From the NCBI GenBank assembly GCA_000146465.1, contig CP001947.1: DNA of 64,000 nt, one strand, 5' to 3'. This document shows positions 21,533-57,734 of this stretch, piece after piece (within the stretch, counting starts at the first letter, position 1; each line of letters begins with the position of its first letter). The notes below the pieces were generated by a model, which had not been told where the DNA came from, ran no database searches, and saw nothing but the letters and a program-made list of their open reading frames with translations. The position numbers were made by a program, and so were the translations under genes.

Positions 21533-21605
21533 GGCCTCATAGCTCAATGGTTAGAGTGTCGGCCTACGGAGCCGAAGGTTGAGGGTTCGAGTCCCTCTGG
21601 GGTCG
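21533..21605 (+). tRNA. tRNA-Arg (anticodon ACG)
   Basis: 73-nt cloverleaf folded by hand: acceptor GGCCTCA/TGGGGTC, D arm GCTC..GAGT, anticodon stem TCGGC/GCCGA with loop CTACGGA (ACG), T arm GAGGG-TTCGAGT-CCCTC. Confidence 0.85.
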
Positions 21606-22112
21606 GCTGTCTTTTGTGCTTCTTTTTTTCTTCCTAGACTTTTTCATCCACATCTCTAGTGCATTGCTTCTGTATCTGCCCTGCACATCTTCATCCAACG
21701 AGTTCCACATCTTAATGAACATACGAACGTTTTCTTCTGGAGACACATTTATGTCGCCACAGATGTCGAAGAGTTCGTTTACAAAGAAAAGATATCCTGA
21801 ACACTCCCATCGCTGTATATCCCGTATTTTAACATATTTTCTTAGCTTCTTTATCGTGTTTGTATCATTGACTAAATTGCCGTCGTCACAGCCATCCAAC
21901 TCATTGGCTTCCTCAAGATCTTTATTGCATTTTTCCACATACATATTCCTCTCCTCGTCCGGCATTTCCTTCCATACAGCCATCATATTCAAGGCAGTAT
22001 CGACACAACTTGTGTATTTGTAATTATTACTTTGGAAAAAGTCCCTGGCAAAGACCGTGAATGGAGATCTCTGCTTGGTAGGCATTGAATACAAGGATTC
22101 AAAAAATTTCAT
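21564..22112 (-). CDS. HMG-box protein with two HMG boxes
   Basis: MPTKQRSPFTVFARDFF...AVWKEMPDEERNMYVEKCNKD and a second KKLRKYV...FIKMWNSLDEDVQGRY box. Start set to ATG 22110-22112, preceded by ATACCCCCGAG. The hydrophobic N-terminus implied by the track start is rejected. The last about 14 codons overlap the tRNA-Arg gene antisense. Confidence 0.6.
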   Translation of the reverse strand: MKFFESLYSMPTKQRSPFTVFARDFFQSNNYKYTSCVDTALNMMAVWKEMPDEERNMYVEKCNKDLEEANELDGCDDGNLVNDTNTIKKLRKYVKIRDIQRWECSGYLFFVNELFDICGDINVSPEENVRMFIKMWNSLDEDVQGRYRSNALEMWMKKSRKKKRSTKDSRPQRDSNPQPSAP

Positions 22113-22194
22113 CTCGGGGGTATGTATCTTCGAAAAATACACCAAAGGAATTAGATAGTACAGTAGAGGCCAATAAATAGAGTCCATTTAATCC

Positions 22195-30764: not shown

Positions 30765-31322
30765 TTAAACAGCCTTCCTTATGTTTTCAGAAACTATGTT
30801 TAGATGATTTCCATTAATCTTCCATAGAGAACAATTGGACAGTACTATAATCGCACCCACCTTCAATCCAAATTCGTCAACCACTCTCTGGGAACAAGAC
30901 CCGTATATGGAGTCGCTTTCGTCTACTAGCTCTAAACAAGCTACATCTCCTCCAAACATGTCTAGTTTTTTGATTATCCCTGTAAACTCTCCTTCAACCT
31001 TATACTTTTTGCTTTTCTTTATTTCATCTATGTCCATTTTGGCCTGTATTTCTCTTCTTATCTGCTTTAGTACATTAAAATCTAACTTCATGATGTGAAG
31101 CGGCGTAGAAACTTGGGAGGATGTAAGCTCATGGATATCTTCTTCATCTTCATCTAAGGTTTTTTCGACTTCCTCCTGGTTAAATGGGTTATGTGGATCT
31201 TCGTCAGACAGGTCTTTAGATGCGGTGTCGTCCATAGGATGGTCACTATCATTTTCTAAGGAACTTGCTTCGTCTCTCTCTTTTGTTTCTGTGTTTCTAA
31301 TCTGTGAAATTAACTCGTCCAT
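30765..31322 (-). CDS. Hypothetical acidic protein (185 aa)
   Basis: D/E-rich N-terminal half, ordered C-terminal half. True ATG. No family recognised. Confidence 0.4.
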   Translation of the reverse strand: MDELISQIRNTETKERDEASSLENDSDHPMDDTASKDLSDEDPHNPFNQEEVEKTLDEDEEDIHELTSSQVSTPLHIMKLDFNVLKQIRREIQAKMDIDEIKKSKKYKVEGEFTGIIKKLDMFGGDVACLELVDESDSIYGSCSQRVVDEFGLKVGAIIVLSNCSLWKINGNHLNIVSENIRKAV

Positions 31323-31374
31323 ATAAGCAATGGTAATTGAAGGGATTCTATCTAAAAAGAATTTGGAAACTGAT

Positions 31375-31905
31375 TTAATGTCTCTTTAGCAAGGACTGAT
31401 CAAATAGGAACAAACCTACGCCTTCTCCTCCACATCTTGTGCAGTTGACATATAAGTCGTTGAACTCCGAAATAGATTCTACCTGTTCGGCGATAAAATC
31501 CTCCAAGAATTGGACAATGGTCTCATCTCCTGCTTTTGCAGCTATTTCAGAAATAGTCAATATATTGTCAAGCACAGTCTGCTCAAACTCTTTGGAGGCC
31601 TTGAGAATATCACTTGTCTTTTCATACTTCTTTATGTCTGGAGCCTCTATGGTCCTGAACTCAATATTCAATCCTCTCATGTTCATAAAGTCAATGATTT
31701 TTTGTGCATGTTCGTTTTCCTCAAGACTGTTTTTCTTGAAGAAGCCAGCCAGTCCTTTGAGGCAGACATTGGGGTCTTCAAAATGGGCAGCACATGCAGT
31801 GTAGAAGTAAAATGCATTGTACTCCAATAACAATTGAGAAGAGAGGAGTAGGCCTGCTTCCATTTTCCATTCATCAGTTGAAGCTTCTCTTGTCTCGGGA
31901 TTCAT
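31375..31905 (-). CDS. Ferritin
   Basis: Over about 175 aa it aligns with eukaryotic ferritin H-chain: LLLEYNAFYFY..HFEDPNVCLKGLAGFFKKNSLEENEHAQKIIDFMNMRGLNIEFRTIEAP versus [65 protein letters not shown], and GVGLFLFDQSLL versus GLAEYLFDKHTL. Start set at ATG 31903-31905. The N-terminal 56 codons of the track ORF overlap the divergent RQC2 gene. Confidence 0.75.
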   Translation of the reverse strand: MNPETREASTDEWKMEAGLLLSSQLLLEYNAFYFYTACAAHFEDPNVCLKGLAGFFKKNSLEENEHAQKIIDFMNMRGLNIEFRTIEAPDIKKYEKTSDILKASKEFEQTVLDNILTISEIAAKAGDETIVQFLEDFIAEQVESISEFNDLYVNCTRCGGEGVGLFLFDQSLLKRH

Positions 31906-31996
31906 TGTATAGTAAACAAATATGTTGTTAAGAGTAGTTTCATCTTCTTTGAGATGATACTTACTCCAGAAATATTTGCAGAAAGAAAGAGCCCTG

Positions 31997-33943
31997 ATGA
32001 AGCAGAGATACACCTTTTTAGACATCAGAGCAACAGTCAACGAGTTGAAGCCTAGACTGGTGGGAAAGTTCATCCAGAACTTCTATACGACATCTCAGAG
32101 AATCATCTACATAAAGTTCAGTAACAAAGATATCCTCCTTGTCGAGCCGGGTGTTAGAATCCACTTGACGCAGGAGCATGACATGGACATTTCCCATTTC
32201 TGCAAGATTCTGCGAAGAAAGGCCAGAAGAGACAAGGTTGTTGATATATATCAATGCGGATTTGATCGGGTGGTTGTTTTAGAGCTTGGAAGGCAGAAGA
32301 TTGTATTTGAATTCTTTTCAGGGGGGAATATTTTGATTGTAGAAGATGGAAAGATAGCAGAAATATTTCGGGTTGTCAAGGACTTAGATATTGTCAAAGG
32401 GTCAGAGTATGTGTTCAATAAGGTTGACTTTGACCTTAGCATTGATGCTTTTATCAAGAACGATCTGAAAGATTTTCTCCCCCTAGACGACCTCCTGGTC
32501 AAGAAGGTCTTGAACGAACTAGGCACCCGGATCAAGGCTGATCCTATAGACATGAAAAAAGCAGCACAGAACGGTATTCCGATAAAGGAAGATGTCAAGA
32601 GCATATTCTTGGAGTTCATGAGTGAGTTCCGAAAGACGATGGAGGATATTCAAGGATATGGAGGTGTTATCATGGAAAAGGGAAAGCCATCGAATCTGAT
32701 TCCATTTAAGGCTGATGGGGCAAAGGACTTCAACACATTTAATGATGCTGCAGAGTATTTCTTTCAAGGGAGAAAGAAATTTGGAAAGAACGATAGAGAG
32801 ACAAAAGTGGATAAGGTGAGAAAAAGACAAGAAAACTATATGAAGGAGATGGAGCAGCAGGGAGAATGTTATAGGAAGAAGGCAGAGCTATTGGAAAAAA
32901 ATGCGGATCTTGTTAACCGAATCCTGGAGATCTTCAAAGTTGTTAGAAAAAACAAAGTGAAATGGACGGATTTTGAAAAGTTCCGAGAACAAGAGAACAA
33001 GAAAGGAAGCGAGGTTTCCAAGGCTATTGTGAAGACGGATTTTGTATCCCACACATGTTGGATAACTTTAGAAGGAGAAGAGATTCCGATTGATTTTAAT
33101 ATCTCACTATTCAATAATGTAAGCGAGTTTTATCAAAAAAGTAAGAAACTCGAAGAGAAGATTAGGAAGACTAGAGACAGTCTTGGAGAAGTGCTAAAGA
33201 AGATAGCGCCAAAGGTGGAGACTAAGAAAATCACAAGAACTCTGTATTGGTTTGAGAAGTTCCATTTCTTCTTTTCTTCAGACGGTGTACTTGTGATCGG
33301 GGGGAAAACTGCCCAGCAGAATGAAATTCTTGTTAAGAAGCATCTAGAGCCTACAGACTTGTACTTCCATAGTGATGTACATGGTGCTTCAAGTATTATT
33401 GTCAAGAAGCCTACAGAGAAGACTATTGTAGAGACGGCATCGATGGCGCTTTGTATGTCAAGATGTTGGGAGACAAATGTTGTTTCTCCTGTATGGTATG
33501 TTTATGGTGAACAGGTTAGCAAGACGGCACCTTCAGGGGAGTATTTGGGAAAAGGGTCTTTTATGATAAAGGGAAAGAAGAACTATGTGGATTGCCATAA
33601 GATAGAGTATGGGCTAGGATTGTTATTTCGAGTTTTCGAGGATATTGAAAAGCAGGTTGAAAACATGAAGGTTGATGAGAAGGAAAACCACAAGTTTGTG
33701 AGCGATCCGGAGGGGATGGAGATTGTCCATTCGATGCCTGTGTGTGGGCCTTGGAGTGTCATATCGACCTACAAATATAAAGTCAGGCTTGTGCCCGGAA
33801 GAGAAAGAAAAGGAAAACTGGTGCAGGAAGTATCGAAAAGATTTGTTGGGCAGGCGCCTGATAGCGAGAAGAGCTATGTGAGAAGTATATCGGTAGAAGA
33901 ATACATTAACGTTCTTTTTGGAAATGTCCGAATAGGAAAATGA
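31997..33943 (+). CDS. RQC2: Ribosome quality-control complex subunit Rqc2/Tae2 (NEMF; NFACT family)
   Basis: N-terminus MKQRYTFLDIRATVNELKPRLVGKFIQNFY (NFACT-N). NFACT-R block YWFEKFHFFFSSDGVLVIGGKTAQQNEILVKKHLEPTDLYFHSDVHGASSIIVKKP. Start at the second ATG (31997), directly preceded by AGAGCCCTG. Confidence 0.8.
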   Translation: MKQRYTFLDIRATVNELKPRLVGKFIQNFYTTSQRIIYIKFSNKDILLVEPGVRIHLTQEHDMDISHFCKILRRKARRDKVVDIYQCGFDRVVVLELGRQKIVFEFFSGGNILIVEDGKIAEIFRVVKDLDIVKGSEYVFNKVDFDLSIDAFIKNDLKDFLPLDDLLVKKVLNELGTRIKADPIDMKKAAQNGIPIKEDVKSIFLEFMSEFRKTMEDIQGYGGVIMEKGKPSNLIPFKADGAKDFNTFNDAAEYFFQGRKKFGKNDRETKVDKVRKRQENYMKEMEQQGECYRKKAELLEKNADLVNRILEIFKVVRKNKVKWTDFEKFREQENKKGSEVSKAIVKTDFVSHTCWITLEGEEIPIDFNISLFNNVSEFYQKSKKLEEKIRKTRDSLGEVLKKIAPKVETKKITRTLYWFEKFHFFFSSDGVLVIGGKTAQQNEILVKKHLEPTDLYFHSDVHGASSIIVKKPTEKTIVETASMALCMSRCWETNVVSPVWYVYGEQVSKTAPSGEYLGKGSFMIKGKKNYVDCHKIEYGLGLLFRVFEDIEKQVENMKVDEKENHKFVSDPEGMEIVHSMPVCGPWSVISTYKYKVRLVPGRERKGKLVQEVSKRFVGQAPDSEKSYVRSISVEEYINVLFGNVRIGK

Positions 33944-57662: not shown

Positions 57663-57734
57663 GGTTGCGTGGTGTAATGGTTATCACTTCAGACTCTGAA
57701 TCTGACAATCTGAGTTCGAATCTCGGCGCGACCA
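57663..57734 (+). tRNA. tRNA-Gln (anticodon CTG)
   Basis: 72-nt cloverleaf: acceptor GGTTGCG/CGCGACC, anticodon stem TCAGA/TCTGA with loop CTCTGAA, T arm CTGAG-TTCGAAT-CTCGG, discriminator A. Confidence 0.8.

Follow-up and report, generated by a model that had tools for sequence, protein, structure and literature searches.

A 2014 paper (PMC4133162) infers that ferritin was already present in the fungal ancestor and that some microsporidians have kept it. According to the same source, ferritin genes occur in the early-diverging Mucorales, Spizellomyces and Allomyces, while most fungi (Dikarya) are devoid of them; the ferritins of these early-diverging groups are the presumed vertical relatives of the microsporidian proteins. 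The terrestrial Nosema/Vairimorpha have lost the gene entirely (PMC7616845). The gene considered here is itself already known, being annotated in GenBank for Encephalitozoon intestinalis ATCC 50506 ("soma ferritin", identical to our product), E. cuniculi GB-M1 ("SOMA FERRITIN"; AL590446) and E. hellem ATCC 50504 ("ferritin"), the latter two sharing its length, start codon and neighbours at 76% and 79% identity, respectively; that some microsporidians possess ferritin is likewise in print (PMC4133162). Searchable literature yielded no experimental study of a microsporidian ferritin, only studies of host ferritins and two genomic remarks.

Outside the microsporidia, the closest described systems are the animal H/M ferritins (human FTH1, frog M, shrimp and marine invertebrates). 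With these the E. intestinalis protein has in common the fold, the seven ferroxidase-centre residues, an E helix with the F-D motif, a similar length and the lack of a transit peptide, at an identity of 27-37%. It differs from them in a helix D that is one residue shorter, in the replacement of D131 by Q, in the disappearance of the "RGG" turn after helix B (G78 to L) and in a clade-conserved Cys 158, where animals have V or M. The bacterial non-heme ferritins (Ftn; NF007638) belong to the same superfamily and share the cage type, the helix-D length and the equivalents of E27, E62, H65 and E107, but the E. intestinalis protein reaches only 44 bits against the cut-off of 178 of this equivalog model.

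The ferritin locus and its gene model

The window, that is, the whole stretch of DNA analysed, comprises 64,000 nt of contig CP001947.1 (GCA_000146465.1), and all positions follow its numbering. It originates from Encephalitozoon intestinalis, which agrees with the microsporidian lineage proposed in the initial annotation. On the minus strand, ORF 31375..32073 (232 aa) contains the ferritin frame, from which a 176-aa product (MNPETREAS...LLKRH) is read starting at the internal ATG 31905-31903; this product matches the NCBI entry "soma ferritin [Encephalitozoon intestinalis ATCC 50506]" with 100% identity over 100% of its length. The features of the locus are listed in Table 1.

Table 1. Features of the ferritin locus of E. 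intestinalis (positions in the 64,000-nt window)
Feature	Position	Strand	Basis and remarks
HROB-like OB-fold protein, 185 aa, downstream co-oriented neighbour	30765..31322	-	PF15072 HROB 28.6 bits, just under the 30.8 cut-off; same neighbour in orthologous loci
Ferritin CDS, H-type, full ferroxidase centre (predicted)	31375..31905	-	176 codons plus TAA stop (31375-31377); NCBI identity, PF00210, PDB matches, AF2/Foldseek, ligand alignment
Spurious lengthening of the ferritin ORF by 56 upstream codons, overlapping RQC2	31906..32073	-	In-frame upstream ATG only in E. intestinalis
Divergent spacer between ferritin and RQC2 starts, 91 bp	31906..31996	.	Sequence, and alignment with E. hellem, E. 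cuniculi and another Encephalitozoon
Conserved block GAAAC(T/A)(A/C)(C/T)TC(T/C)T..AAC(A/G)..TTTGTTTA(C/T)T	31911..31941	-	Kept in four aligned Encephalitozoon spacers
Palindromic AAATATTT element, some 20 nt ahead of the RQC2 ATG	31970..31977	.	(A/G)ATATTT in 4/4 Encephalitozoon spacers
CCC motif directly before the RQC2 ATG (GCCCTG-ATG)	31992..31994	+	Sequence; GGG on the ferritin strand near-invariant in the spacer alignment
RQC2/NFACT gene, divergent neighbour, 648 aa	31997..33943	+	Pfam NFACT_N, NFACT-R_1, NFACT-C; same neighbour and orientation in six related loci

The initial annotation had pointed out that the ORF extends 56 codons beyond the gene and runs into RQC2, and indeed the open frame continues for 59 codons above ATG 31905, has an in-frame ATG at 32073 and covers the first 77 nt of the RQC2 coding sequence on the opposite strand. 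Were the 232-aa ORF the true product, its 56 additional N-terminal residues could be a targeting peptide, e.g. for the mitosome or for secretion. Apart from the open frame and the ATG at 32073, the evidence argues against such a product: (i) it would overlap RQC2 by these 77 nt, (ii) an in-frame upstream ATG is missing from all seven orthologous ferritin loci, where the frame stays open for 0-45 codons only, (iii) all orthologues, whether annotated or called, are 172-176 aa long and start at the aligned Met, and (iv) in the long form the Pfam domain starts at residue 76, the extension itself matching nothing. We consider the 232-aa form to be extremely unlikely; judging from the orthologous sequences, ATG 31905 is the true ferritin start and the extension lies outside the gene, as the shorter gene model had supposed.

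Since the ferritin ATG lies at 31905 and that of RQC2 at 31997, the two genes stand head-to-head across a spacer of precisely the 91 bp first reported, which presumably acts as a promoter region, either shared or bidirectional. The conserved block within it ends about 5 nt before the ferritin ATG, is devoid of CCC and is a candidate promoter or initiator, and the palindromic element nearer to RQC2 resembles an AAATTT-like signal known from microsporidian genes. Before the ferritin ATG stands TTTGTTTACTATACA, in which the CCC motif is missing, as had been noticed, and the RQC2 start context is GAGCCCTG-ATG. The accompanying claim that most neighbours carry CCC stands as an enrichment, since the motif occurs within 15 nt upstream of the first ATG in 24 of the 50 long ORFs of the window against 8.5% of random 15-mers; the word "most" thus amounts roughly to half or more. 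Neither an iron-responsive element (IRE) nor any other Rfam RNA was detected at E<=1 on either strand between 31200 and 32200. With no IRE hairpin in so short a spacer, regulation must differ from that of the vertebrate IRE/IRP-controlled ferritins.

Family assignment and ferroxidase centre

The ferritin fold recognised in the initial annotation is upheld by searches at the level of profile, sequence and fold. Pfam PF00210 (Ferritin), the profile proposed there as a check, matched the 176-aa protein at E=2e-30 and 106 bits (cut-off 24.5), residues 20-157 covering profile positions 3-141 of 142; by itself this match is non-discriminating, because the profile also covers Dps and bacterioferritin. 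All of the 60 best PDB matches listed are animal, plant or algal ferritins (E 3e-27 to 4e-20), with invertebrate ferritins at the top (about 35% identity), and the best NCBIfam match is "non-heme ferritin". The AF2 model (pLDDT 85.6, pTM 0.81) displays the predicted four-helix bundle A-D (helices 11-43, 50-76, 97-124 and 128-157) with its long B-C loop (77-96) and a short E helix (163-173), and its Foldseek superposition on PDB ferritins of shrimp, human (H) and frog (M) gave a TM of 0.82-0.84 and an rmsd of 1.6-1.9 A. Rubrerythrin, which had been named together with Dps as a possible alternative, was rejected: PF02915 matched only marginally (24.2 bits; cut-off 22.8), over the same residues that give 106 bits with PF00210, and Pfam revealed neither a C-terminal rubredoxin-like Cys4 domain nor any other additional domain in the 176-aa protein. 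From its sequence and predicted fold, the protein is a classical eukaryotic-type (H-like) ferritin and not a rubrerythrin, Dps or bacterioferritin.

The E..Y/EENEH pattern seen at first reading proved to correspond to the ferroxidase centre. Residues E28, Y35, E62, E63, H66, E108 and Q141 align with human H E27, Y34, E61, E62, H65, E107 and Q141, the stretch E62-E63-N64-E65-H66 matching human E61-E62-R63-E64-H65 column for column, so that all seven H-type centre residues (7/7) are intact by alignment and the di-iron ligands, whose completeness had been put forward for checking, are all present. Over 28 sequences of the microsporidian clade described below, these seven positions are 86-100% conserved. 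Q141 and the F-D motif ending the E helix (F168, D169) agree with the column consensus of the sequences compared, most of which are eukaryotic. In the 3-fold channel, the D131 of animal and plant ferritins (human numbering) is replaced by Q132, while the equivalent of human E134 is kept (E135), one of the two carboxylate rings thus being retained; among the 28 clade sequences the former position is occupied by Q, E, T or N and the latter by D or E in 28/28. As the D131 carboxylate is replaced, iron may enter by a route other than the textbook one. Lineage-specific columns include C158, located in the D-E turn (96% in the microsporidian clade against 9% outside), M74 and I70. Helix D is one residue shorter in all microsporidian ferritins, against a long form in 88 of 130 non-microsporidian sequences, human H included; the short form being found in the other 42, this "deletion" was ruled out as a microsporidian synapomorphy.

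The E. cuniculi orthologue departs from this pattern by two changes at the ferroxidase centre, E61D and H65Q (human H numbering), and activity may therefore not be uniform within Encephalitozoon. These two changes, together with the loss of the channel D131 in the microsporidian clade and the complete loss of ferritin in terrestrial Nosema/Vairimorpha (PMC7616845), are what one would cite if the gene were a decaying remnant, or had been repurposed as a non-catalytic shell protein that does not oxidise iron. Such decay or repurposing is nevertheless improbable, considering that the centre is intact in E. intestinalis and well conserved across the clade, that no orthologue shows a single frameshift or stop, and that synonymous change is 4-8 times as frequent as non-synonymous change. 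Against six orthologues, pN was 0.09-0.21 and pS 0.78-0.90, the synonymous sites being saturated; dN/dS was 0.056 between E. hellem and its closest relative. By these sequence comparisons, the ferritin is under strong purifying selection and presumably encodes a catalytically competent (predicted) H-like subunit.

Descent of the microsporidian ferritins

Whether the gene was vertical or acquired had been singled out as worth checking. The trees are distance-based (neighbor-joining, NJ, on about 165 columns) and not maximum-likelihood ones. In them, the ferritins of at least eight microsporidian genera form one clade, in which Encephalitozoon is joined by Nosema granulosis, Astathelohania contejeani (two copies), Cucumispora dikerogammari, Enterocytozoon bieneusi, Edhazardia aedis, Conglomerata obtusa and Tubulinosema ratisbonensis. 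The NJ bootstrap value of this clade was 84% in a tree with the 130 other ferritins of highest similarity, and 89% in one with named sequences from animals, plants, an amoebozoan and bacteria (46 sequences, 500 replicates). Its sub-clades agree in part with taxonomy (Encephalitozoon + Nosema, 68%; Edhazardia + Conglomerata, 69%). One further candidate (P0011; 33% identity) was discarded as a microsporidian ferritin: its contig carries EF-hand/cNMP-binding and amine-oxidase/cytochrome-b5 genes, unlike the neighbours of the microsporidian ferritins, and it falls outside the clade.

The gene neighbourhood is also conserved. The order CDT1, NFACT <-> ferritin, HROB-like, APE, DnaJ, diphthamide synthase recurs in four other genomes, i.e. 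E. cuniculi chromosome VI (AL590446), E. hellem (CP002718) and two further relatives, and the core NFACT <-> ferritin, HROB-like in two relatives at 68-69% identity; in some orthologous loci the downstream neighbour has an HROB match on record. Altogether, the syntenic block around ferritin is found in at least seven genomes. The composition of the gene (GC 40.5%, GC3 44.1%) equals the means of the 45 other genes in the window. The single clade, the low pN and the average GC and GC3 thus point to vertical descent within the Microsporidia, as far as sequence data can tell, and of the two origins initially contemplated the vertical one is favoured by clade (84-89%), synteny and composition alike.

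The label "soma ferritin", borrowed from molluscs, might suggest a recent horizontal transfer from an animal host. Among the best non-microsporidian matches of the microsporidian profile are indeed a "soma ferritin" of Lingula and a ferritin of the myxozoan Henneguya, and the best PDB matches are the invertebrate ones mentioned above. However, identity to any animal ferritin does not exceed the 27-37% range, plant ferritins score much like animal ones with this profile (123-130 versus 119-134 bits), microsporidia and animals formed one clade in 0 of the 500 replicates of the 46-sequence tree, and neither tree places an animal sequence within the microsporidian clade. Moreover, microsporidian genera infecting very different hosts have ferritin, the composition of the gene is at the mean of the others, and the single clade of at least eight genera, with its own signature residues and conserved synteny, argues against host-to-parasite transfer. 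We consider such a transfer highly improbable.

A second scenario accepts vertical descent within the Microsporidia and places an ancient transfer in their stem lineage, with a bacterium, an animal or some other eukaryote as donor, instead of inheritance from the fungal/opisthokont ancestor. It would fit with the lack of ferritin in most fungi (Dikarya; PMC4133162), with the short helix D common to microsporidian ferritins, bacterial Ftn and some eukaryotes, and with the NJ trees, which group the microsporidian clade with bacterial Ftn at 44% bootstrap. That grouping is probably due to long-branch attraction, which would yield the same picture; the NJ sister group (P0112, P0121 and P0173-P0176), two members of which are bacterial, adjoining a desulfoferrodoxin or an AraC-type response regulator gene, was accordingly rejected as evidence of bacterial origin. 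The short helix D is not diagnostic, since it is also present in Echinamoeba and in a trematode, Q141 and the F-D motif fit the mostly eukaryotic consensus, and eukaryotic ferritins score higher than bacterial ones with the microsporidian profile (119-140 versus 88-115 bits). Neither the microsporidian-profile search (E threshold 1e-10) nor that with a 144-sequence mixed profile returned a named non-microsporidian fungal ferritin, and the cluster entries named only microsporidia, animals and an amoebozoan. As Mucorales, Spizellomyces and Allomyces own ferritin genes (PMC4133162), plain inheritance is the simpler account, and we regard an ancient transfer as unlikely. Overall, E. intestinalis very probably possesses a single-copy H-like ferritin gene that is old and vertically inherited in the microsporidia, lost in some lineages and not recently acquired from a host.

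Proposed function and significance

By homology to described ferritins, we infer 24-mer assembly, catalysis, a cytosolic location and a physiological role as follows. Twenty-four subunits would form a hollow cage, in which Fe(II) would reach an intrasubunit di-iron ferroxidase centre made up, in human H numbering, of site A (E27, E62, H65) and site B (E61/E62, E107) with Q141 and Y34 as a second shell. There it would be oxidised by O2 or H2O2, and the resulting Fe(III) would move into the cavity to be kept as a ferrihydrite-like mineral. As the protein has no N-terminal extension, it is presumably cytosolic. Encephalitozoon is a parasite devoid of a respiratory chain that uses iron only for Fe-S assembly and in a few di-iron enzymes. 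The likely role of its ferritin would be to buffer and detoxify a small iron pool for Fe-S cluster assembly and ribonucleotide reductase, and it may also hold an iron reserve in the spore.

The microsporidian ferritins bear several marks of their own, namely the near-invariant Cys 158 of the D-E turn, near the 4-fold axis, the lost D131 ring, the lost RGG turn and the short helix D. That they represent a distinct, ancient lineage with its own iron handling is a speculative reading, to which we attach a rather low probability. If true, one possibility would be a thiol- or redox-gated pore through which iron is taken up or released, in place of lysosomal ferritinophagy, a pathway apparently missing in microsporidia; such a gated route could supply iron to the spore.

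As a discovery, the gene carries little weight; its modest value comes from the context of a reduced genome set against the loss in Nosema/Vairimorpha (PMC7616845). What our analysis adds is the single ferritin clade of at least eight genera, its signature residues and the synteny across Encephalitozoon and close relatives.

The genome of Encephalitozoon is among the smallest of eukaryotes, and yet it keeps a complete, predictedly catalytic ferroxidase centre under strong purifying selection. Ferritin being retained, the parasite would therefore still need intracellular iron buffering, and the protein may be one interface with the nutritional immunity of the host.

Gene model and ferritin assignment

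The ferritin product, read from an internal ATG of a longer ORF (see table), shows 100% identity along its whole length with the NCBI/UniRef entry "soma ferritin [Encephalitozoon intestinalis ATCC 50506]". The window, with a G+C content of about 40% throughout, is thus from E. intestinalis, and the microsporidian lineage guessed in the initial annotation was right. The protein is 79% identical to the ferritin of E. hellem ATCC 50504 and 76% identical to the "SOMA FERRITIN" of E. cuniculi GB-M1. The 56-codon upstream extension remarked on earlier is present and would overlap RQC2, the divergent NFACT gene, by 77 nt. It lies outside the gene: no upstream in-frame ATG was found in 7 orthologous loci, whose frames stay open for just 0-45 codons before the aligned ATG, and the orthologues (172-176 aa) all start at the same aligned Met.

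The protein matches Pfam PF00210 (Ferritin-like domain) over profile positions 3-141 of 142 (E=2e-30; 106 bits). The only other Pfam match, Rubrerythrin, is marginal (24.2 bits versus a cut-off of 22.8) and covers the same residues. Since PF00210 also spans Dps and bacterioferritin, the assignment was checked further. Among the best 60 of 275 PDB sequence matches, every one is an animal, plant or algal ferritin (E from 3e-27 to 4e-20), a nemertean ferritin leading with about 35% identity; the top NCBIfam model, the bacterial "non-heme ferritin", scored 44 bits, well under its equivalog cut-off of 178. An AlphaFold2 model built from ten orthologues (mean pLDDT 85.6; pTM 0.81) has helices A (11-43), B (50-76), C (97-124) after a long loop, D (128-157) and a short E (163-173), and superimposes on shrimp, human H, mitochondrial and frog M ferritins with TM scores of 0.82-0.84 and rmsd of 1.6-1.9 A. 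The ferritin fold initially proposed is therefore borne out.

In alignment A1, the protein aligns gap-free with the human H chain (mature numbering) as far as helix D and matches all seven human positions, so that the ferroxidase centre is complete; neither a rubrerythrin or Dps assignment nor a missing ligand, any of which would have told against the original reading, came to light. Within the microsporidian clade (n = 28; human numbering), conservation is 100% for E27, E62 and E107, 96% for Y34, 93% for H65 and Q141, and 86% for E61. The E. cuniculi protein (locus L010, 3001-3531; GB-M1 chromosome VI, AL590446) carries E61D and H65Q (SLDENAQAQ versus SLEENEHAQ) and is the sole one of the ten Encephalitozoon-group sequences without the His ligand; judged from these substitutions, its catalytic competence may be reduced.

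Features of the ferritin locus and residues of the ferroxidase centre
Feature	Position	Strand	Description
HROB-like gene, directly 3' of ferritin	30765-31322	-	185-aa acidic protein
Ferritin-containing ORF	31375..32073	-	232 aa
Ferritin product	internal ATG 31905	-	176 aa, MNPETREASTDEWKMEAG...FDQSLLKRH
Ferritin-RQC2 spacer	31906-31996		exactly 91 bp
Ferritin-side block	31911-41		ferritin strand GAAAC..TTCT..AAC..TTTGTTTAYT; ends ~5 nt before ATG; conserved in four genomes
Palindrome AAATATTT	31970-31977		conserved in four-genome alignment
GGG/CCC beside RQC2 ATG	31992-31994		conserved in four-genome alignment
RQC2/NFACT, divergent neighbour	ATG 31997		648 aa; NFACT_N, NFACT-R_1, NFACT-C domains
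Ferroxidase residue	E28		human H E27 (A1)
Ferroxidase residue	Y35		human H Y34 (A1)
Ferroxidase residue	E62		human H E61 (A1)
Ferroxidase residue	E63		human H E62 (A1)
Ferroxidase residue	H66		human H H65 (A1)
Ferroxidase residue	E108		human H E107 (A1)
Ferroxidase residue	Q141		human H Q141 (A1)

A conserved locus and its spacer

The gene order CDT1, NFACT, ferritin (divergent from NFACT), HROB-like, APE (Exo_endo_phos), 147-aa ORF, DnaJ and diphthamide synthase is the same in E. cuniculi chromosome VI (AL590446), E. hellem (CP002718) and a relative with an 83% identical ferritin, and, except for a tRNA-Val in the spacer, in a relative at 74% identity. Two relatives at 68-69% identity keep the RQC2-ferritin head-to-head pair and the HROB-like neighbour, with no APE gene called at their loci. 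The C-terminus of the HROB-like protein scores 28.6 bits against the Pfam HROB homologous-recombination OB-fold, slightly under the cut-off of 30.8; the related loci all keep this neighbour, and for some of them an HROB match is on record. Two relatives, with ferritins 74% and 69% identical to this one, carry the tRNA-Val(AAC) in the spacer (L013, 2876-2949; L004, 4893-4965), and the spacers of E. intestinalis, E. hellem, E. cuniculi and two other relatives lack it. This amounts to a minor lineage-specific gain or loss in an otherwise fixed order. The window itself carries a tRNA-Gln(CTG) at 57663-57734 (+) and a tRNA-Arg(ACG) at 21533-21605 (+), the latter overlapping the 3' end of a 207-aa ORF at 21564-22187 (-).

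A more distant relative, P0010 (59% identical), lies on a 6.6-kb JGI metagenome contig (Ga0596931_0008474; locus L001), where a 154-aa ORF and an APE gene come after the ferritin, on its strand, while the Encephalitozoon APE is on the opposite strand. Upstream, instead of a divergent RQC2, is a 414-aa ORF on the ferritin strand with no Pfam match; the head-to-head pairing is thus not universal.

The initially described 91-bp head-to-head spacing proved exact. In the alignment of the spacer from four Encephalitozoon genomes, no CCC precedes the ferritin ATG in any of the four species, so that its absence, remarked on for this window, holds genus-wide. The accompanying statement that most neighbours have the motif is better read as about half or more: 24 of 50 long ORFs in the window have CCC, often as CCC(N)2-4ATG, in the 15 nt before their first ATG, versus 8.5% of random 15-mers. 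The motif is also missing before the two genes downstream of ferritin. The motif is real and not universal, and for some ORFs without it the first ATG may have been wrongly chosen. Genes of Encephalitozoon have been described as carrying a CCC-like motif and an AAATTT-like signal. Within 31200-32200 there was no match to any Rfam family, the iron-responsive element among them, which sets regulation apart from the vertebrate IRE/IRP type.

Distribution and descent

Compared with six orthologues, the gene shows 0.09-0.21 non-synonymous differences per site and 0.78-0.90 synonymous ones, the latter saturated; E. hellem and the P0002 genome, the closest pair, give a dN/dS of 0.056, and neither frameshifts nor internal stops occur in any orthologue. 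The gene is under strong purifying selection. Its GC (40.5%) and GC3 (44.1%) compare with means of 40.1 +/- 2.3% and 44.1 +/- 4.2% for 45 other window genes.

An exhaustive HMMER search with an Encephalitozoon-group profile against 1.84 billion representatives, followed by cluster look-ups and a further search, turned up close relatives from seven further genera (Nosema granulosis, Astathelohania contejeani, Cucumispora dikerogammari, Enterocytozoon bieneusi, Edhazardia aedis, Conglomerata obtusa and Tubulinosema ratisbonensis). The crayfish microsporidian A. contejeani has two divergent paralogues (P0014, KAF7684636.1; P0018, KAF7684633.1) on one 91.6-kb contig, three genes apart going by their accession numbers, which fall in separate sub-clades. 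In a neighbor-joining (NJ) tree of 158 sequences, the named microsporidian ferritins and ten further sequences form one clade of 28 (bootstrap 84%; 167/200). A 46-sequence NJ tree (500 replicates), which set the clade among named animals, plants, a charophyte, an amoebozoan and bacteria, supported it at 89%, with sub-clades of Encephalitozoon plus Nosema (68%) and Edhazardia plus Conglomerata (69%); it never joined microsporidia and animals as one clade and placed no animal sequence inside the microsporidian one. Synteny, composition, distribution and trees together rule out that the gene was recently acquired from a host and point to descent from an early microsporidian ancestor followed by losses, which answers as vertical within Microsporidia the question of origin raised initially. 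Such descent agrees with the published pattern in Nosema, where PF00210 is present in aquatic species and missing from terrestrial ones (PMC7616845), and with a second published remark, that some microsporidians have retained ferritin (PMC4133162).

The branch leading to the clade is long and joins bacterial ferritins in 44% of NJ replicates, two of its neighbours being demonstrably bacterial; we read this grouping as long-branch attraction. Against the microsporidian profile, eukaryotic ferritins score higher (119-140 bits) than bacterial ones (88-115 bits).

Where animal and plant ferritins have D131 in the 3-fold channel, the window protein has Q and the clade Q, E, T or N; their E134 is D or E throughout the clade. 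The window protein also lacks the animal/plant RGG turn after helix B, and its helix D is one residue shorter, a trait that bacterial Ftn, Echinamoeba and a trematode also show and that is hence not diagnostic. In the D-E turn, 96% of the clade has Cys at position 158, versus 9% of other ferritins. Nothing but the altered channel and the clade-specific Cys158 hints at a lineage-specific feature.

Significance and proposed function

The initial observation and its interpretation are correct. The gene is already annotated as ferritin in three Encephalitozoon GenBank records, and published work has already discussed its presence in some microsporidians; we found no paper in the literature that reports experiments on a microsporidian ferritin. 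This is an ordinary, well-conserved gene of housekeeping type, and nothing about it is surprising.

By homology, 24 subunits would assemble into a cage, the di-iron centre within each subunit would oxidise Fe(II), and Fe(III) would be laid down as mineral in the cavity. The protein lacks an N-terminal extension and so presumably stays in the cytosol. The parasite needs little iron, its demand comprising mitosomal and cytosolic Fe-S assembly and ribonucleotide reductase. Microsporidia appear to be without the lysosomal ferritinophagy route that animals use. The likely role is to buffer and detoxify labile iron, and perhaps to provision the spore.
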